Positions 9,040-24,188 of a stretch of DNA of 24,188 nucleotides are shown here, piece by piece. Source of the stretch: Polyangiaceae bacterium (GTDB lineage: Bacteria > Myxococcota_A > Polyangia > Polyangiales > Polyangiaceae); assembly GCA_035762175.1 (NCBI GenBank), contig DASTPP010000381.1, forward strand, positions 1-24,188, in the 5' to 3' direction. Positions within the stretch are counted from its first letter, which is position 1, and each line of letters begins with the position of its first letter. The translations under genes were made by a program, and so were the position numbers. The notes under the pieces were generated by a model. It was not told where the DNA came from. It worked only from the letters and a program-made list of their open reading frames with translations, and did no database searches.

Positions 9040-9974
9040 ATGAGCGTGACGAAGATTTATCGGGCGGCGGCGCTCGCGCACGCCGACGTGCGGCGCCGCG
9101 AAGAGAATGTCTTGCGGCTGTCGCCCGCCTGGACGCGCTGGGCCTACTGGGTGGTCGTCGCGGCGCTCGGGGCCGCGGCGGCGTTCGGCCTGCTCGCGAC
9201 GGTCTACGAGTACGCCGGCGGCCCGGCGGTGGTCTGGGCGAGCGGGCGCGAGGACGTGACGTCGGCCGTCGCGGGCACGATCGCCTCGGTCGAGGTGCAG
9301 CCGGGCCAGCACGTCGACGCCGGGCAGGTGCTGGTGCGGCTGCACGCCGGGCGCGAGCGCGCCGAGCTCGAGGGGGCCGAGCGCGAGTTCGAGGCCGAGC
9401 TCGTCAAGACGCTGCGCGACCCGGCCGACGGGGCGGCGCGCCAGGCGCTCGCGGCGCTCCGGGCGAAGCGCGACCTGGCCGCGGCGCGGCTCGCCGAGCT
9501 GTCGCTGCGGGCGCCGCGGGCCGGGGTGGTGGGCGATCTGCGCCTGCGCCCGGGCCAGCCGCTCGCGGCCGGCGACGCCGCGCTGACGCTCACGTTCGAC
9601 GACGCCCGTTGCGCGGTGGTCGCGGTGTTGCCCGGGCAGCACCGCCCCCACCTGCGGCCCGGGCTGCCGCTGCGGTTCGAGGTGGCGGGCTACCGCCGCG
9701 CGCACCGCGACCTCGCGATCGACGCGGTCGAGGGGCAGGTCGTCGGGCCGGCCGAGGTGCGGCGGGCGCTCGGGCAGAGCGTCGCCGACACGATCAAGGT
9801 CGAGGGCCCGGTCAACCTCGTGCGGGCGGCGCTGCCCTCGTGCGACTTCGAGGCCGACGGCGAGAGGCTGCCCCTCTACCACGGCATGGGGGGCCGCGCC
9901 GAGGCGAGGGTCAGGCCCGAGCGCGCCGTCTTTGCCTTCGCGCCGGCGCTGCGGGCGGTCTTCGGGGGCGGGCC

Positions 9975-9978
<4 letters not shown>
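9040..9978 (+). CDS. HlyD-family bacteriocin/peptide secretion accessory protein
   Basis: Frame of ORF 9034..9978, with the ATG at 9040, 13 nt after the previous stop. TM helix WAYWVVVAALGAAAAFGLLA. Lipoyl-like GTIASVEVQPGQHVDAGQVLVRL, a coiled coil, and LRAPRAGVVGDLRLRPGQPL. Its stop overlaps the next start (GTGA at 9975-9978). Confidence 0.8.
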
Positions 9979-12197
<2,219 letters not shown>

Positions 12198-12578: not shown

Positions 12579-13037
12579 GTGCCGACCTTCACGCTTCGCA
12601 TCAACGGCGCCGACCGCGAGGTGACCGCGAGCGACGAGATGCCCCTGCTCTGGGTGCTGCGCGATCGGCTCGGGCTGACGGGCACCAAGTACGGCTGCGG
12701 CATGGCCCTCTGCGGGGCGTGCACGGTGCTCGTCGGCGACGAGCCCGTCCGGTCGTGCGTCGCGCCCGCGTCTTCGCTGCGCGGCCAGGCGATCACGACG
12801 ATCGAGGGCCTGTCGCCCGACCGATCGCACCCGGTGCAGCGGGCGTGGGCGGCCGAAGACGTGCCGCAGTGCGGCTATTGCCAGTCGGGCCAGATCATGA
12901 GCGCGGTGGCCCTGTTGCGGAGGGTGCCGCGCCCGAGCGACGCCGACATCGACACGGCCATGGCCGGCAACCTCTGCCGGTGCGGCACGTACGGCCGAAT
13001 TCGCAAGGCGATCGTACGGGCGAGCGGGCGGCCGTGA
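12579..13037 (+). CDS. (2Fe-2S)-binding small subunit of a molybdenum hydroxylase (IorA / aldehyde oxidoreductase alpha-like)
   Basis: ORF 12579..13037 (GTG start). Both [2Fe-2S] Cys clusters are present: [13 protein letters not shown] and [11 protein letters not shown]...CRCGTY. Translationally coupled to the next gene. Confidence 0.9.
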
Positions 13038-15145
13038 GCGACCTGCGCCGGCGCTCGTTCTTGGTCGTCGCCGCGTCGGCGGCGGGCGCGCTTCTCTGGG
13101 CCCGGGCCCGGGGGCGCCTCGGCGGCGGCATGCGCGCCGGGCGCGAGCTCCACCCGCTCGTCTCGATCGCGAGCGACGGGGCCGTCACCGTCGTGGTGGC
13201 GCGCACCGAGATGGGGCAGGGGGTGACGACGGCGCTGCCGATGTTGCTGGCCGAAGAGCTCGACGTCGACTGGGCGCGCGTGGCGGTCGAACACGAGCGC
13301 TTCGACCCGCGGCACGGCGGGCAGAAGACGACCGCGAGCTTCAGCGTCTACGACGGCTGGGATCGCTACCGCAAGGCCGGCGCGACGGCGCGCGCGCTGC
13401 TCGTCGGGGCCGCGGCCGCGCGCTGGGGCGTGCCGGCCGAGCGGCTGCGCACCGAGGCCGGCTTCGTGCTCGGCGAGGGGGGGCGGCGCGCGAGCTACGG
13501 CGATCTCGTCGACGAGGCCGCCGCGCTGCCCGCCCCGGCCGACGTCGCGCCCGACGACCGCCGTCCGCCCCGCGTCGTCGGCCGGCCGCTGCCGCGCCTC
13601 GACACGGCGTCGAAGATCGACGGCAGCGCGAGGTTCGGCCTCGACGTGCGGGTCGACGGCATGCTGATCGCGTGCGTCGCCCGGGCGCCGAGGGCCGGCG
13701 CCGTCGCGGCGCGCTACGACGCCGAGGCGGCGAAGCGGGTCGAGGGCGTGCGGCACGTGGCGCCGATCACGTCGGGCGTCGCCGTGCTCGCCGACGACAC
13801 CTGGGCGGCCCGGCGGGGCGTCGAGGCGCTCGGCGTCGTGTGGGAGGGCGGCGCGAGGGGGGGCTCGGCCGAGCACGCCGCCCGGCTCGCGAGCGAGCTC
13901 GGGCTGCCGCCGAAGGTCGTGGCGAGCCGTGGCGACGTCGACGCCGCGCTCTCGGCCGGGGGGCGCCGTCTCGCCGCGACGTACTCGGTGCCCTTCGTGC
14001 CGCACGCGACGATGGAGCCGGTCAACGCGACCGCGCACGTCGAGCGCGGCCGTTGCACCATCTGGGCCCCGACCCAAGACCCGGGGCGCAACCGCGCCTA
14101 CGCCGCCAAGCTGCTCGGCGTGCCCGAAGGGGCGGTCGAGGTCCGCCGGACGCTGGCCGGCGGGGGGTTCGGCCGCAAAAGCTGCCAGGACTTCATTCAC
14201 GACGCGGTCGAGGCGTCGCGCGCGGTCGGCCGCCCGGTGCAGGTCGTCTACACGCGCGAAGACGACCTGCGCCACGACTACTTCCGGCCGGCCTTCGCGC
14301 ACCGGCTCGAGGGCGCCGTCGCGGGCGGCAAGATCGTCGCCTGGGACCACCGCCTCGTGGGCCCCTCGGTGCTCGCGAGCTGGTCTCCCGAGGGGGCGCC
14401 GGCGCCCGGCGAGATCGACCCGGTCTCGATCGCCGGCGCCGAAGAGCTGCCCTACGACGTGCCGAACTTTCGCGCGGGCGCGCGCATGGTCGACCTCGGC
14501 GTTCGCGTCGGCATCTGGCGCTCGATCGCGCACTCGTACACCTGCTTCGCCAACGAGTCGTTCTTCGACGAGCTCGCCGCCCTCGCGGAGAAAGACCCGC
14601 TCGAGTGGCGGCTCGCGCACCTCACCGCCCCTCGCCCGAGGCGCGTGCTCGAGCTCGTCGCCGAGAAGGCCGGCTGGCAGCGTCGCTCGGGCCGCCCGCT
14701 CGGCGTCGCCCTCGAGGTCGAGGCAGACGAAAGCTACTCGGTCCAGGTCGCCCACGTCGTCGAGCTCGAGCCGGGGGCCGACGGCTCGTTCGCGATCGCG
14801 CGCATCGTCGTCGCCGTCGACGCCGGCCGCATCGTCAACCCGAACATCGCGGCGGCCCAGATCGAAGGCGGCGCGGTGTGGGCCCTCTCGGCGCTGTTTC
14901 ATGAGATCACGTTCGCCGACGGGGCCGCCGTGCAAAGCAACTTTCACGACGCCCCCGTCCTGCGAATGCCCCAGACGCCGCGCGTCGAAGTTCACTTCGT
15001 CGACTCGACCGCGCGCCCGTCGGGGCTGGGCGAGAAGGGCGTGCCGTCGCTGGGCCCGGCGCTCGCGAACGCGCTCGCGGCGGCGACCGGGCGCCGGGTC
15101 CGCGCGCTGCCCATTCGCCCGGCCGACCTGCGGCAGACCACCTGA
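13034..15145 (+). CDS. Molybdopterin-binding large subunit of xanthine dehydrogenase family oxidoreductase (IorB-like), Tat-signal type N-terminus
   Basis: Frame of ORF 12719..15145. The GTG at 13034 overlaps the IorA stop (GTGA). N-terminus [21 protein letters not shown] is twin-arginine-like. Family-typical blocks: [47 protein letters not shown]. Confidence 0.9.
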
Positions 15146-18662: not shown

Positions 18663-19045
18663 GGCCGCCCTGCGTCGGCGTGCGGCTTTTTTCTGCGGCG
18701 TTCGTGAGCGCGCGGCCGGTCGGCGGTCGCGTCGCGGCCTTTCGCGAAGGGCGAGAGAGGGGGGGGCAAGCCAGTGGGTTCGACAGAACGAGAGCGTCGG
18801 GCGGGCGGGCACCGAGGGCGGTCTCGGCGTACCGCCCGACCTCGGCCGGCGCGAGCGCCTCGGGGGGGCCGGCCCCTTCGAGCCGGCGTCGTCCGCATCG
18901 CGCGCACACCGCCTTTTGCTTGCTTTCCATGTCACCTCGCCGCCGCGAGCCCGTCGCTCGCCACCAGGCCCCTTCGCGCCGCTCGCCGAGCGGCCACGAG
19001 GGGGCCGCGCCCGGCCGGGCCCATCACCACCGAGGAGGTTCGATC

Positions 19046-20029
19046 ATGACCATCCGCTGGCACAATCTCGCGCTCGTTTTGCCCCTCGCGACCGCCTGCG
19101 CCATGGCGGGTCCGAGCGAGCCCGACCCGGCCGAGGGGGGGGCCGAGGGCGCCGTGGTCGACGACGACCTCTCGCTCCACGGCATCGCCACCAACGGCGC
19201 CTCGCTCAACGGCATCGCCACCAACGGCGTCTCGCTCAACGGCATCGCCACCAACGGCGTCTCGCTCCACGGCATCGCCACCAACGGCGTCACCCTCAGC
19301 ACCGTGACCGTCGAACAGAGCGAGCTGGTCGCCCATGGCCCCGACGGCGCTCGCTACGACGGCACGGGGCTGGTCGGCGCCGAGGTGCTCGGCTCCCTGG
19401 CCTCCGGCACCAGCGTGTCGATTCGCATCGACTCGGCGCGCCAAGCCGACGGGGTGTGGTTCTACGCGGCCAGCTACGCCTCGGGCTCGAGCTGGCAGCC
19501 GCTCTGCCTGCCCTACGCCGGCGCCGCCGGCGAGGCGATCGCGCTCGATGGCCGGTGGAACACGAACGAGGGCAAGCCCGGCGGCGGGTCGTGGACCGCC
19601 GACCCGACGACGTTCACGTTCGCGTGCCGCGGCTCGGCGCTCGCCAAGTGCGTCGAGCTCGGGTACAAGCCCTGGGCCTCGGCCGGGGGCGTGTCGCTGC
19701 GCGGGCACCACCAGGCCTGTACGCGCCTCTTGCGCGCCGACTACTGCGGCGACGGCACGCCGTGGACGACCGACGGCGTGACCGTCAACCTCTACGACGC
19801 CGTGGGCGTGCAGGCCGACACCGAGTCGTGGTCCATCGAAGCCGAGTGGGGGCCCGACGGCGCGCGCGCCATCTCCGTCCCCGCCCGGCAGCGCTTCTTG
19901 AACGCGGGCGGGCCGGTCCCACCCTGTTTTGCTTCGAAGGTTTCGATGTCCGCCGGCGCCCCGGGGCACTTCTCGACCGGCTCGCTCGTGATGAGTGAAA
20001 CCCTCTCGCACCCCTCCCCCGTCCAGTGA
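19046..20029 (+). CDS. ADYC-motif domain lipoprotein with N-terminal decapeptide (double pentapeptide) repeats
   Basis: Frame of ORF 18680..20029. The ATG at 19046 is preceded by GAGGAGG (19032-19038). Signal plus lipobox LPLATAC. Four repeats of SL(H/N)GIATNG(A/V). Cys-rich C-terminal domain containing RADYCGDG, which resembles what I recall NCBI labelling as ADYC domain proteins of myxobacteria. Confidence 0.8.
   Translation: MTIRWHNLALVLPLATACAMAGPSEPDPAEGGAEGAVVDDDLSLHGIATNGASLNGIATNGVSLNGIATNGVSLHGIATNGVTLSTVTVEQSELVAHGPDGARYDGTGLVGAEVLGSLASGTSVSIRIDSARQADGVWFYAASYASGSSWQPLCLPYAGAAGEAIALDGRWNTNEGKPGGGSWTADPTTFTFACRGSALAKCVELGYKPWASAGGVSLRGHHQACTRLLRADYCGDGTPWTTDGVTVNLYDAVGVQADTESWSIEAEWGPDGARAISVPARQRFLNAGGPVPPCFASKVSMSAGAPGHFSTGSLVMSETLSHPSPVQ
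19171..19290 (+). repeat. 4 x 30-nt near-perfect tandem repeat inside the ADYC lipoprotein gene
   Basis: CTCGCTC(C/A)ACGGCATCGCCACCAACGGCG(C/T) starts at 19171, 19201, 19231 and 19261. It encodes SL(H/N)GIATNG(A/V). Confidence 0.95.
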
Positions 20030-20419: not shown

Positions 20420-21454
20420 TCAGCCGCAGATCTGGACCTTGTCGGCGCAGCAGTCGCCGAACTGGGAGCAGGAGCTATCGCACTGGCAGGGCAGCGACGC
20501 GTTGAAGTTGCCGCAGCGGCCGACGCAGCTGTTGGTCGACGGCGGAGGCGGAGGCGGAGGCGGCGGCGGGGGCGGCGGCGGCGGCGGCGGCGTGGTGGTG
20601 CTAAGAACGTTCGACACCGCGCGGATGCGCGAGATCCGCATGCCCGAGTTGGTGCCGCCGCTGGCCGTGCAGCCGCCGTTCGTGTGCACACCGGCGACGC
20701 TGCCGGCCGAGTCGAGAATGGCCGAGCCCGAATTGCCGCCGAGCGTGTCGAGGTTACCATAGCGAATACTGTTGCCTGAAATGCTCGAGACGGTGCCCGC
20801 CTCGATCTGCTTCGGCTTGCCCTCGGGGTGGCCGATGATGGTGATGGCGGCGCCGGTGGCCGGGTCGGTCTGGCGCACGGGCAGGACGCCGAAGGTCGCC
20901 CCCGGGTTACCCTCGAGGCGGAGGATGGCGTAGTCGAGGCCGCCGAGGCCGTCTTCGAGAACCTGGCTAATGCGAAAGTGGCTTTGCGCCAGCAGCGTCG
21001 TGCTGCCGGCGGCCTTCTCGAAGTTGAACGAGACGAACTGGCCGACGGTGGTCGAGTCGACACAGTGGCCCGCCGTGAGAAAGAGGTCGTTCGCAATGAG
21101 CGCGCCCGAGCAGAACTTGCTCGAGTTGTCGGCGTTGGTGGTTTCGAGGGCGCCGACGGGGCGCTTGTTGCTTTGCACGAAGGCGACCGAAGGCCCGAGG
21201 GTGCCGTCATAGTCGTTGACATGTTGGGCGTCGTTGGTCGGGCCGCAGATCGACGGGTCTTTGTTCTCGGCGACGTCGCCTGAGTCGCCCGCGTCTGCCT
21301 GCTCGGCGCACGCGACGGCGAGCAGCGAGAGCCCCGTGGCCGCGAATGCCAGCGCCACCCTTCGGTGGCCGCGGGGGGTCGACAACGTGGAAGCCTTGGG
21401 CAGTCGCTCATTCTCTTGAGTCATGTCGGCACCCGAATCTCTTGGCCGCGCCAT
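20420..21454 (-). CDS. Trypsin-like (S1 family) serine protease lipoprotein with poly-proline linker and C-terminal somatomedin-B-like domain
   Basis: ORF 20420..21454 (alternative ATG at 21424, MTQENE...). Signal plus lipobox LLAVAC. Catalytic motifs LTAGHC (His), LDYAIL (Asp), GGNSGSA (Ser). A run of 17 Pro. The C-terminus SCVGRCGNFNASLPCQCDSSCSQFGDCCADKVQIC has 8 Cys. Confidence 0.85.
   Translation of the reverse strand: MARPRDSGADMTQENERLPKASTLSTPRGHRRVALAFAATGLSLLAVACAEQADAGDSGDVAENKDPSICGPTNDAQHVNDYDGTLGPSVAFVQSNKRPVGALETTNADNSSKFCSGALIANDLFLTAGHCVDSTTVGQFVSFNFEKAAGSTTLLAQSHFRISQVLEDGLGGLDYAILRLEGNPGATFGVLPVRQTDPATGAAITIIGHPEGKPKQIEAGTVSSISGNSIRYGNLDTLGGNSGSAILDSAGSVAGVHTNGGCTASGGTNSGMRISRIRAVSNVLSTTTPPPPPPPPPPPPPPPPPSTNSCVGRCGNFNASLPCQCDSSCSQFGDCCADKVQICG
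20540..20590 (-). repeat. (CCN)17 trinucleotide tract encoding Pro17 in the protease gene
   Basis: The plus strand reads GGCGGAGGCGGAGGCGGAGGCGGCGGCGGGGGCGGCGGCGGCGGCGGCGGCGG. The minus-strand translation is TTTPPPPPPPPPPPPPPPPPST. Confidence 0.9.
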
Positions 21455-21516
21455 GCGACCCGGACGTATTTACCCGATACGAGGCAAAGCACAACCCGGT
21501 TAATGTATGAGATAAG

Positions 21517-21557
21517 CGTTCTTTTTTTGAACTCGAACCGTTCTCTTTTTGAACTCG
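21517..21557. promoter_or_regulatory. Two tandem 19-bp sites CGTTCTYTTTTTGAACTCG (GTTC-N7-GAAC), 22-bp period, in a divergent intergenic region
   Basis: Copies at 21517-21535 and 21539-21557 (18/19 identical). Each holds the inverted half-sites GTTC/GAAC around a T-tract. They lie in the AT-rich gap upstream of the minus-strand protease gene. Confidence 0.35.
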
Positions 21558-22134
21558 TCGCCCGCCGCCCGCAGCGGCACGAAAAACATGCGCCCTGGCA
21601 GCACGAAAGGCCCCCCCACGGAAGCCCGCCGCCGTAGCGGGCCGCCCCGAGCGTCGCCTCGCGATCGCAGCATCGTCCGGTGCCTCACGGCTCCGGGCCC
21701 GAACCTTCGGTACTTAACGGCCTTTTCCAGTGCCGACGGACCGCTCGTCCGATGCGGCTACCCGGCCCCACCTCGCCGGCTGCAGTCCCGCCCGCACGGA
21801 CGAGTAGGCAAACCAGCCGGGGCTCGTTGGGGCGCCCGCGCGTCGGCCCGCGCGTCGGCCCGGGCGCCGCGCCGCGCGCCCCTTCTGCTGATGATGAAAA
21901 ATGCCACCGAATGCCGCACCTCATCATTCGCCCCGAGGTCGGGCCGCTGCTCTTCGAGCACGCCGCGGCTCGGGCGGTGCCCGACGGGGCGCCGGAGGCC
22001 GCGGGGGCGGCTACGACGCCCGCCGAGCGAGGCGGGCGGACCGGGGGCCGGGGCAACCGGCGGCGAGCGGAGGCGCCGCGCCGGCGCGCGAACGCGCTCG
22101 CCGTCAGGCCCGAGCGGCGGAAGGCGGCGAGGAC

Positions 22135-22890
22135 GTGCAGCCCGGCGTGCCCGACCGAAAGGGCACGGTCGGCGTCGGCAGCAAGCGCTTCGGCGTCGCG
22201 GGCCAGAAGCTGCTCGAGCCCGACCAAGACGCGACCACCCACGATTTCATCTTTCAGGACCACGACGTCTTCTTCGTCGATACCGCGCGCGACCTGTGCG
22301 AGTTCACCCGCCAGTCGCTGCACGGGCGGGCCGACGAGTATTTCGACAAGCACCCGAAGACGAAGCAAACCCCCGACGCGATGGCGAACGACGTGCCCTC
22401 GGCGCTGGGCTCGCCCTCCTGGGGCGTGCTGCCCTTTCGCTTCGGCGCCGGCCGCGACGGGAAACACAAGCTCGAGCCGGTCGAGCCGCTGCCGCCGGGC
22501 GAACCGCCCGACGACGGCGACAGCTCGCAGGACGCAGTTCAACGGGCCCCGGCTTCGAGCCCCGGCAGAGCTGCCCGGCTTGCTGGTGAGCTTGGGGCGG
22601 CGCGTCCGCGCGTGCGTCGATCGCGGCGGCGAAGGGGTCTGTGCGAACGTCGCGCTCGACGGAGGCGCGAGCCGCCGGGCATTCGAGGCGGCCGGGCGAG
22701 GGCGGCCGGCCTCGCCTCGTCAGGGGGTGAGCAGGGGTTGAAACGGCCCTTCGCCGCGCCCGCTTCGCCCCCCCGAGCTGAAGCAAGGCTTGTGCTAGGG
22801 CAGAGACAGAGGTGCACTTCCTACCTCCTGCGAGCGTCGCCGCTGGGCCGGAGACGACTATCCGAAGTGGAGGGGCTCGGGTATCTTTGA
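22135..22890 (+). CDS. Hypothetical protein (coding core about 22115-22540; start and 3' end uncertain, possibly frameshifted)
   Basis: Frame of ORF 21901..22890. Only the segment ...DVQPGVPDRKGTVGVGSKRFGVAGQKLLEPDQDATTHDFIFQDHDVFFVDTARDLCEFTRQSLHGRADEYFDKHPKTKQTPDAMANDVPSALGSPSWGVLPFRFGAGRDGKHKLEPVEPL has protein-like composition and high GC3. In-frame GTGs at 22135 and 22147. After about 22540 the high GC3 moves to the frame that stops at 22741. Confidence 0.35.
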   Translation: MQPGVPDRKGTVGVGSKRFGVAGQKLLEPDQDATTHDFIFQDHDVFFVDTARDLCEFTRQSLHGRADEYFDKHPKTKQTPDAMANDVPSALGSPSWGVLPFRFGAGRDGKHKLEPVEPLPPGEPPDDGDSSQDAVQRAPASSPGRAARLAGELGAARPRVRRSRRRRGLCERRARRRREPPGIRGGRARAAGLASSGGEQGLKRPFAAPASPPRAEARLVLGQRQRCTSYLLRASPLGRRRLSEVEGLGYL

Positions 22891-23024
22891 CTGGTTCCCG
22901 AAAGGGTACGAACCATGCAGGCCCGTGAATCGGCCGCGCCTCGCGAGATTCGTTTCTCATCGATGACGGCCCGTCAGGCGCACGCGGCCCCCTGCGCCGA
23001 ACCCTCGCCGCGAAAGAAGCTCCC

Positions 23025-24188
23025 ATGTCCAAGACCCGCGCCCCCTTCATCCCGCGCCGCCGCCTGCCCCGCCCCCGCCTCGTATCTCGCCCGGCCCCCG
23101 GGGGCGCGCTGCCGTTCGACCGCCGGTCCTTTCTGGGCTCGTTGCTCGCCGGGGCCGCGCTCGCGGCGGTGGGTTGCGACAAAGATGACCCCCCCGCCGC
23201 GACGACGCCGTCCTCGCGGGGCGTGTCGATCGCCGAGGTCCGCGCGGGCGAAGACCTGTTCGGGTACGTCGTCCGGGTGCGCGGCGGGCACGACGAGGCG
23301 CTCTACAAGGCCATCCTCGGGGCCGCCAACGAGTACAAAGAGGGCGACGAGGCGCTCGGCATTCACGCGCTCGACCAGGCGACGCGCGACAACGCGCGGG
23401 CCTTGCTCGGCAACACCCGGCTCGGCGATCTGCGGGCGCACCCCCTGCACCGCGACGCCGTGCTCGCGCTCATCGAGGGCGCGGTCGACGAGGGCGCGGC
23501 CGCGCGGGTCGCCGGGTGGACGATGGCCGAGCTGCGCGAGTTTCTCTTGCGCGAAGACGAGCCGGCGATCAAGGCCGTCATGGTCGGCCTGTCGAGCGAG
23601 ATCATCGGCATGATCGTCAAGCTCATGACCAACGATGAGCTCATCGCGGTCAGCCGCAAGGTGTTCAACCCCTTGCCCGGCTCCAACATCGGCGCGCGCG
23701 GCTACCTGGGCGCTCGCATTCAGCCGAACTCGCCCACCGACAACGTCGACGACATCGTCTGGCAGGTGTTCTCCGGCTGGTCCTACGCGGTCGGCGACGT
23801 GGTGCTCGGCAACAACCCGGTCTCGAGCGAGGTCGACAGCGTGGCGGCGATCGAGCTCGCCCTGAAAGATGTGCTCGTCACCTTCGGGCTACAAGACACC
23901 CTGCCGCACTGCGTGCTCGCCCACATCGACGTGCAGGCCGCGGCCGAGGGCGAGTACCCCGGCTCGACCGCGCTCTGGTTCCAGAGCCTGGGCTCGACCG
24001 ACGACGCCAACGCCACCTTCGACGTGAGCGTCGACAAGATGCTCGCCCACGCGGCCCAGCGCGGCGGCAAGTTCGGGCTCTACTTCGAGACCGGCCAGGG
24101 CGCCGACGCCACCAACGGCCACGGCGCCGGCTTCGACATGGTCGTGCACGAGGCGCGCAAGTACGGCTTCGCCCGCGCGCTGACCGGC
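23025..24188 (+). CDS. eutB: Ethanolamine ammonia-lyase large subunit (EutB), 3'-truncated by window end, with N-terminal Tat-lipoprotein-type signal
   Basis: Open frame from the ATG at 23025 to the window end, so it is not in the ORF track (no stop). EutB-typical blocks: ARIQPNSPTDNVDDI, YAVGDVVLGNNPVS, CVLAHIDVQ, LYFETGQGADATNG, VHEARKYGFARAL. The N-terminal extension contains FDRRSFLGSLLAGAALAAVGC. Confidence 0.9.
   Translation, partial: MSKTRAPFIPRRRLPRPRLVSRPAPGGALPFDRRSFLGSLLAGAALAAVGCDKDDPPAATTPSSRGVSIAEVRAGEDLFGYVVRVRGGHDEALYKAILGAANEYKEGDEALGIHALDQATRDNARALLGNTRLGDLRAHPLHRDAVLALIEGAVDEGAAARVAGWTMAELREFLLREDEPAIKAVMVGLSSEIIGMIVKLMTNDELIAVSRKVFNPLPGSNIGARGYLGARIQPNSPTDNVDDIVWQVFSGWSYAVGDVVLGNNPVSSEVDSVAAIELALKDVLVTFGLQDTLPHCVLAHIDVQAAAEGEYPGSTALWFQSLGSTDDANATFDVSVDKMLAHAAQRGGKFGLYFETGQGADATNGHGAGFDMVVHEARKYGFARALTG

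Follow-up and report, generated by a model that had tools for sequence, protein, structure and literature searches.

An ethanolamine ammonia-lyase with a predicted twin-arginine lipoprotein signal in a Polyangiaceae bacterium and its relatives

Can ethanolamine ammonia-lyase (EAL), which textbooks describe as a cytoplasmic or microcompartment enzyme, also work outside the cytoplasm? The question is raised by the last gene of the window analyzed here, a stretch of 24,188 nucleotides from a Polyangiaceae bacterium (assembly GCA_035762175.1, contig DASTPP010000381.1; 73.6% G+C), in which a coding sequence for the EutB large subunit is preceded by what reads as a twin-arginine translocation (Tat) signal with a lipobox. 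The encoded protein is assigned to the EutB/EutC family by profile, residues, and fold; its predicted location and its probable single-chain form are unlike those of every characterized EAL. Judged from the sequence, export of the enzyme is quite likely.

The N-terminal extension and its conservation

The gene begins with an ATG at 23025–23027, and its open reading frame (ORF) stays open through the window end at 24188 (Table 1). The original prediction held that some 70 extra residues of normal codon bias precede the EutB homology, and both parts of this claim proved sound: residue 1 of E. coli EutB aligns at about residue 72 of the window protein, and the G+C content at third codon positions (GC3) is 0.94 over codons 1–32 and 0.91 over codons 1–66, close to the 0.96 of the core and unlike the 0.61 of the same frame upstream. 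No such GC3 signature is present in overlapping ORFs, whether in other frames or on the minus strand. Judged by this core-like composition, which neither the upstream DNA nor the overlapping ORFs share, the extension is real and translated.

Read from its N-terminus, the protein has the order MSKTRAPFIPRRRLPRPRLVSRPAPGGALPF-DRRSFLG-SLLAGAALAAVG-C-DKDDPPAATTPSSR-GVSIAEVRAGEDLF—that is, residues 1–51 comprise an n-region that is long and basic, the twin-arginine motif, an h-region free of charge, and a lipobox, followed by a 14-residue linker and the EutB domain, whose conserved mature part begins at G66. The heptapeptide D-R-R-S-F-L-G (residues 32–38) matches the Tat consensus S/T-R-R-x-F-L-K at the boundary of the n- and h-regions, and A-V-G-C fits the looser PROSITE-style lipobox pattern, with the strict pattern [LVI][ASTVI][GAS]C, L at −3, left unmatched. 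Long basic n-regions of the form M-x-K-T also occur in the orthologs from Nannocystis, Polyangium, and Archangium, and the linkers found at the same position in relatives vary in both length and sequence. When residues 1–66 were shuffled with their composition preserved, a Tat-like motif plus h-region arose in 518 of 200,000 shuffles, and motif, h-region, and lipobox together in 23 (a chance probability of about 1e-4). Thus, the Tat motif and hydrophobic h-region of the original prediction, and more loosely its lipobox-like AAVGC, are borne out by the sequence, by the shuffle test, and by conservation in the clade, and re-reading of the DNA confirmed the positions assigned to the ATG, the arginine pair, and the lipobox Cys. 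In E. coli lipoproteins, Asp at position +2 leads to retention in the inner membrane. The residues that follow Cys51 here include Asp at +2 and Pro at +7; in Myxococcus xanthus lipoproteins, a Lys at +2 is the sorting mark for the inner membrane, an Ala at +7 that for the matrix (PMC3222651).

Table 1. Positions of the lyase gene, its signal elements, and its substrate-site residues in the window.
Feature	Position	Strand	Remarks
Predicted exported EutB-EutC-type EAL gene, first 388 codons	23025..24188	+	Cut by window end; EutB 2.7e-80, PRK15067 1.1e-104
In-frame TGA closing the frame upstream of the start	22926..22928	+	ATG/GTG/TTG absent from there to ATG 23025
Purine-rich AAAGAAG, weak Shine-Dalgarno-like	23013..23019	+	5 nt before ATG; suggestive only, read from sequence
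Signal n-region, residues 1–31, basic, proline-rich (MSKTRAPFIPRRRLPRPRLVSRPAPGGALPF)	23025..23117	+	GC3 0.94 over 23025–23120
Twin-arginine motif D32-R33-R34-S35-F36-L37-G38	23118..23138	+	R33-R34 at 23121–23126
h-region S39–G50 and lipobox A48-V49-G50-C51	23139..23177	+	No charged residue; Cys at 23175–23177
Low-complexity tether D52–R65 (DKDDPPAATTPSSR)	23178..23219	+	Between lipobox Cys (predicted lipidation) and folded domain
Mature catalytic (EutB) domain start	23220..24188	+	Substrate-site residues aligned to E. coli EutB 3ABO
Substrate-site residue R231	23715–23717	+	E. coli R160
Substrate-site residue Q233	23721–23723	+	E. coli Q162
Substrate-site residue N264	23814–23816	+	E. coli N193
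Substrate-site residue F319	23979–23981	+	E. coli F245
Substrate-site residue E355	24087–24089	+	E. coli E287

The signal is not peculiar to this organism. Among 5.8 billion proteins searched, EutB homologs at 52–72% identity were recovered, and signals of the form RRxF[LIV] start most of the best 120 database matches. Scanning one genome per species revealed relatives in at least 511 species, spanning at least eight phyla, from which 80 loci were kept. Those in Myxococcota belong to Nannocystis (70% identity), Polyangium, Archangium, Myxococcus, Pyxidicoccus, and Haliangium; other carriers are found among Planctomycetota, Acidobacteriota, Verrucomicrobiota, Bacteroidota, Betaproteobacteria, Gemmatimonadota, and the anaerobic Desulfuromonadales. 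Among 76 classifiable loci, 67 carry an arginine pair (61 loci) or RK/KR (6 loci) directly before an uncharged hydrophobic stretch. A lipobox is added in 27 of the 76, mainly in Myxococcota, and its Cys stands at the same place in the orthologs of all six myxobacterial genera just named. When 77 N-termini are aligned, identity averages 15% per column, and only R33 and E76 are conserved at 90% or more; that these two persist while the rest drifts points to selection on the signal rather than on a fold, as is typical of signal peptides.

Across the clade, three interchangeable kinds of predicted export signal occupy this one position, each of them ahead of the conserved domain start V-x-I-x-x-V-x-x-G-E-D-V-F: two are of the Tat type, one ending in a signal peptidase I site and the other in a lipobox, and the third is a Sec peptide with an AxA site. 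The Sec form characterizes a Desulfuromonadales/Desulfobacterota branch, recovered by a search seeded with the protein P0053, whose full-length proteins of 753–775 aa carry classical Sec signal peptides with AxA-like sites abutting V-T-I-x-D-V-x-x-G-E-D-V-F. This branch includes a protein of Syntrophotalea (Pelobacter) carbinolica DSM 2380 (P0377).

The enzyme domain and the EutB-EutC fusion

Downstream of the signal, the Pfam family EutB (PF06751) covers residues 95–386, and the NCBIfam model PRK15067 covers residues 86–386 with 350.8 bits; that this stays under the cut-off of 554, set for whole proteins, is due only to truncation at the window end. The substrate- and radical-site residues of E. 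coli EutB are reportedly R160, Q162, N193, F245, E287, D362, and M392, in a list attributed to Shibata and colleagues in 2010. The first five have identical counterparts in the window protein (Table 1) that are invariant in two clade alignments (A1 and A3); the equivalents of D362 and M392 fall outside the window and are conserved in the relative P0004. The EutC motifs GRVRAGY, IGERPGxGH, and VDH are likewise conserved in relatives. Because the export signal is conserved and the EAL active-site residues that can be checked are kept, deamination of ethanolamine in the periplasm or envelope is the most economical reading; the suggestion of periplasmic or surface deamination in the original prediction is supported to that extent.

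The relatives further suggest what lies past the window end. Intact relatives encode a single EutB-EutC polypeptide of 750–830 aa; ORF walking through the 80 loci, one per species genome, gave an unbroken frame of about 765–830 aa in roughly 72 of them. In full-length relatives, Pfam places a whole EutB domain and an almost whole EutC domain on one chain, and a PDB sequence search with relatives matched both EAL chains. An AlphaFold model of the S. carbinolica protein P0377 (predicted local distance difference score 87.8, predicted TM-score 0.86) superimposes on chain A of 3ABO with a target-normalized TM-score of 0.88 and a root-mean-square deviation of 2.4 Å, and on chains B/D with target-normalized TM-scores of 0.66–0.73, leaving residues 1–24 as a detached, low-confidence N-terminal segment with its helix at residues 3–21. 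Past the window end, the gene most probably runs on into a EutC part of the same chain. It had been asked whether a downstream EutC might hitch-hike on the exported EutB; since intact relatives fuse the two, no such partner is needed.

Some copies are disrupted. In P0008 and P0017, EutB and half of EutC share one ORF and the remainder lies in a second, and three-frame translation calls for a −1 shift in one and a +1 shift in the other. Six copies on long contigs are broken (L083 near 3015, L085 near 8420, L001 near 11930, L002 near 11850, L084, and L086), two of them where an in-frame TAG replaces a conserved Trp or Tyr/Phe codon, the remaining four by frameshifts in different directions. These six are all of the long-contig copies drawn from the first hit list, which held only proteins of at most 675 aa, and this accounts for the excess of disrupted copies. 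A split EutC or a programmed frameshift was rejected, given the heterogeneity of the disruptions and the roughly 72 of 80 intact cases; the disrupted copies are probably assembly errors or pseudogenes.

Set against the EutB/EutC enzymes of E. coli, Salmonella, and Listeria (3ABO, 2QEZ), the clade shares the fold, the Pfam families, and the substrate-site residues. It differs in being only about 30–35% identical to characterized EutB, with insertions of its own, in fusing EutB to EutC, in bearing an N-terminal export signal, and in having no eut operon, EutA reactivase, EutH/Eat transporter, or shell genes near its loci. The closest described system is the fused EutBC of Pelobacter (Syntrophotalea) carbinolicus (Pcar_0491/Pcar_0467), which belongs to the same clade and has in common with the window protein the fusion, the lack of eutA, and a predicted N-terminal export signal; there, however, the signal is a classical Sec peptide (MRLRSKFLYGITFGLALTFVASLAGA, then VAIRD) rather than a Tat lipoprotein signal. 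P0377 is 68% identical to P0053, which shares 55% identity with the window protein, and in alignment A3 P0377 is 57% identical to the window protein. According to PMC3543383, S. carbinolica strains grow by splitting ethanolamine, lack eutA, and have two reported EAL genes, eutBC1 and eutBC2, which are 70% identical; P0377 is one of these two. That paper noted the EutBC fusion for Pelobacter in 2012 and assumed uptake of ethanolamine; in the passages retrieved from it, a signal peptide on EutBC is nowhere mentioned (PMC3543383).

Proposed mechanism and competing explanations

That the protein is exported, depends on Tat, is lipidated, and is loaded with its cofactor beforehand we infer from the letters of the gene and of its relatives, and the same holds for its physiological substrate and role. 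The full reading, which we judge moderately probable, is that the window encodes a single-chain EAL, dependent on adenosylcobalamin (AdoCbl), that is lipid-anchored by means of a Tat lipoprotein signal and faces the periplasm. The fusion protein of about 85 kDa would fold while still in the cytoplasm, probably in cobalamin-bound form, and its D-R-R-S-F-L-G motif would direct the precursor to the Tat translocase. After transport, Cys51 would be lipidated and signal peptidase II would cut before it, leaving the enzyme held at the membrane by the 14-residue tether and facing the periplasm. Ethanolamine set free in the envelope, whether from phosphatidylethanolamine head groups, from glycerophosphoethanolamine, or from phosphoethanolamine, would there be converted to ammonia and acetaldehyde, and because these products would be what enters the cell, neither an ethanolamine transporter nor a microcompartment would be needed. 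The glycerophosphodiester phosphodiesterase of E. coli is periplasmic, as reference 3 of PMC5821096 also indicates.

A precedent for such a route is offered by the reductive dehalogenases RdhA/PceA, cobamide enzymes that are loaded in the cytoplasm and moved by Tat. They differ in having an unrelated fold, in relying on cob(I)alamin/Fe-S redox chemistry rather than on an AdoCbl radical, and in being anchored by a separate membrane protein instead of a lipid. In Acinetobacter baumannii, EutBC has been shown experimentally to work without a metabolosome and without EutA; it has two subunits and associates with the cell membrane, no exported location being reported, and the passages retrieved describe no export signal (PMC9426561). 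The reaction of EAL was assumed to be cytoplasmic in a 2018 review.

Several observations weigh against the proposed route. The window stops at residue 388, and the EutC fusion is taken from relatives. The arginine pair at residues 33–34 and the Cys at 51 come late by generic lipoprotein rules, and the Pfam TAT_signal profile (PF10518; cut-off 22.7) gives only 17.3 bits for the whole window protein and 20.2 bits for its N-terminal fragment, TIGR01409 giving it no match at all. Across the 77 clade N-termini, these profiles match few, namely 16 for Pfam and 13 for TIGR01409; such 21-residue Tat models are insensitive. The 24-kb window contains no tat genes. A radical B12 enzyme outside the cytoplasm would have to manage without an ATP-dependent reactivase and would need a supply of cofactor, and the canonical alpha6-beta6 assembly would be too large to pass through Tat pre-assembled. 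The Sec-type relatives indicate that folding before export is not obligatory in the family: Sec signals imply export in an unfolded state with cofactor loading outside the cytoplasm, so that loading before export cannot be universal. The proposal that Tat exports a folded, cofactor-loaded enzyme therefore stands in part, agreeing with the conserved Tat-type signal without being the whole story, since a sister branch uses Sec.

Signal-less relatives also count against the route, namely a second paralog in Archangiaceae, Vitiosangium, and Pyxidicoccus, as well as P0148 and P0153. In a rough neighbor-joining tree, the Archangiaceae/Pyxidicoccus paralog and P0148 fall inside the signal-bearing clade, with P0153 just outside it; canonical EutB and the eukaryote-like fused forms branch outside as well. 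Since the fused paralog (L047, L050, L055, L063, L064, L072, and P0064) nests within the Tat-lipoprotein myxobacterial branch, its state looks like a secondary loss of the signal. Its genes adjoin those for an acyltransferase, an epimerase, a NUDIX protein, and an alpha/beta-hydrolase. The eukaryote-like fused EutBC proteins (P0164, P0174–P0176, and P0184) branch just outside the exported bacterial clade, and the N-terminal sequence of one of them (1110 aa) looks by eye like a C2 domain.

The alternative that survives best accepts export and assigns the protein a different role, with another vicinal amino alcohol as its substrate or with corrinoid binding or scavenging as its main function. 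It gains from the divergence and the clade-specific insertions described above and from the absence of eut accessory genes, a transporter, an aldehyde dehydrogenase, and conserved neighbors around the Tat-type genes; on the other hand, every ethanolamine-contacting residue of E. coli EAL is conserved, as are the EutC motifs, and S. carbinolica, whose two eutBC fusions are the only EAL genes reported for it, is reported to grow on ethanolamine (PMC3543383). We regard this alternative as unlikely.

It is quite improbable, in our assessment, that the N-terminus is instead a vestigial, non-exporting Tat-like peptide of the NarG kind, or an uncleaved anchor, that serves chaperone binding or tethering and leaves the catalytic domain in the cytoplasm. 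Supply and repair of B12 would be easier there, remnant Tat signals do occur on cytoplasm-facing cofactor enzymes, and the A. baumannii EAL is membrane-associated, with no exported location reported (PMC9426561). Against this, the full consensus motif, the h-region, and a processing site (a lipobox here, an AxA-type site elsewhere) have all been kept, and the Cys is followed by a proline-rich tether, as in true lipoproteins. Furthermore, one branch swaps in Sec peptides; their n-regions are basic, and under the positive-inside rule the domain would then lie outside.

Finally, a true start downstream of the signal, for example the GTG at 23223 (V67), would yield an ordinary cytoplasmic EutB and draws on the coincidence of that codon with the conserved domain start, on the few relatives that begin there without a signal (P0064 and the Archangiaceae paralogs), and on the sub-threshold scores of the Tat profiles, but was rejected as extremely improbable on the core-like GC3 of codons 1–66 (0.91–0.94, unlike the upstream DNA) and on the retention of the signal in 67 of 76 loci across phyla in which the surrounding sequence is not retained, the low chance probability of the signal pattern pointing the same way.

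The periplasm-facing EAL can also be proposed more broadly, namely that the whole clade (thousands of sequences in at least 511 species) is periplasmic, that the apo-enzyme of the Sec branch acquires AdoCbl outside the cytoplasm, and that no ATP-driven reactivase acts anywhere in it. This generalization is tentative, and we would place it somewhat short of an even chance. A connection with a predatory lifestyle, raised in the original prediction, found no support and was rejected, because the same exported form is spread over many non-myxobacterial groups (Planctomycetota, Acidobacteriota, Bacteroidota, Desulfuromonadales, and others).

Gene context and implications

The lyase gene is a stand-alone unit in the window. 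The 24 kb hold no ethanolamine-use genes beside it, and no shell genes, EutA, EutH/Eat, or aldehyde dehydrogenase lie near it; shell genes, EutA, and EutH/Eat are equally absent from the examined loci of relatives. An amphipathic encapsulation peptide was not encountered, the N-terminus being a hydrophobic signal. A cobalamin riboswitch or other upstream RNA was rejected after an Rfam scan of the window, which gave no family at the gathering threshold and nothing in 21400–23200 at E ≤ 1. Conserved operon partners were rejected as well: all-against-all clustering of ORFs within 6 kb of the gene in 75 loci yielded no neighbor family present in more than 10 loci, and the Pfam families of recurrent neighbors are unrelated to ethanolamine.

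Two Sec-type loci have neighbors connected with cobalamin or corrinoids. In S. carbinolica (CP000142.2, locus L087, 7887–22262), eutBC is co-directional with genes for a Gcw_chp protein, the periplasmic binding protein SBP_bac_8, and an unknown protein of 282 aa, and with the cobalamin biosynthesis genes CobU, CobT, CobS, CbiA/CobQ, CobD, and CobA in the same direction. Together with the reported growth of this species on ethanolamine, these cobalamin genes lend indirect support to an AdoCbl-dependent deamination of ethanolamine. At locus L085 (4722–10654), an aldehyde:ferredoxin oxidoreductase gene lies upstream of a Sec-type eutBC, and genes for an ATP-binding cassette (ABC) ATPase and a BtuF-like Peripla_BP_2 protein lie downstream, which hints at a link to corrinoid transport.

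Elsewhere in the window, a 2Fe-2S subunit gene (12579–13037, + strand) is followed by one for a MoCoBD molybdopterin subunit (about 13037–15145, + strand) of the IorAB/aldehyde-oxidase type, and the molybdopterin oxidoreductase begins with a Tat-type motif of its own. This subunit is a possible second Tat substrate of the window; the presence of a second such motif suggests that the source organism uses the Tat pathway. The enzyme is conceivably a periplasm-facing aldehyde oxidoreductase. Other genes include a C39-peptidase ABC exporter of the bacteriocin/peptide export type (9609–12197, + strand), an ADYC-domain protein (18680–20029, + strand) whose domain is preceded by GLTT-type NGIATNGVSL repeats, and a secreted trypsin-like serine protease (20420–21454, − strand) that contains 17 consecutive prolines and, unusually for a bacterium, a somatomedin-B domain at its C-terminus. 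The 1.5 kb that precede the lyase gene are gene-poor except for a stretch at about 22030–22480 (+ strand) within the ORF 21901–22890; it has a GC3 of 0.86–0.93 and probably represents a small gene, coding for some 150 aa and without any match in Pfam.

Full-text literature searches on the enzyme in connection with export, fusion, or particular taxa, and on the Pcar locus tags and eutBC, found no description of an exported EAL, and the group of predicted exported EALs is large and apparently undescribed. If the enzyme is exported, a coenzyme-B12 radical reaction would take place in a compartment free of ATP, which raises questions of cofactor loading (by way of Tat or of Sec), repair, and oligomerization. 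An annotation of EutB in metagenomes would then be no safe proxy for "ethanolamine uptake and catabolism", and the compact, self-contained enzyme of 85 kDa could be attractive for engineering. Export would also explain how many soil and aquatic bacteria without a eut operon could gain nitrogen from the breakdown of phosphatidylethanolamine. Should the clade as a whole prove periplasmic, it would imply an unrecognized route of AdoCbl delivery or retention in the cell envelope, as well as a harvest of nitrogen from phospholipid head groups that requires neither a transporter nor a compartment.

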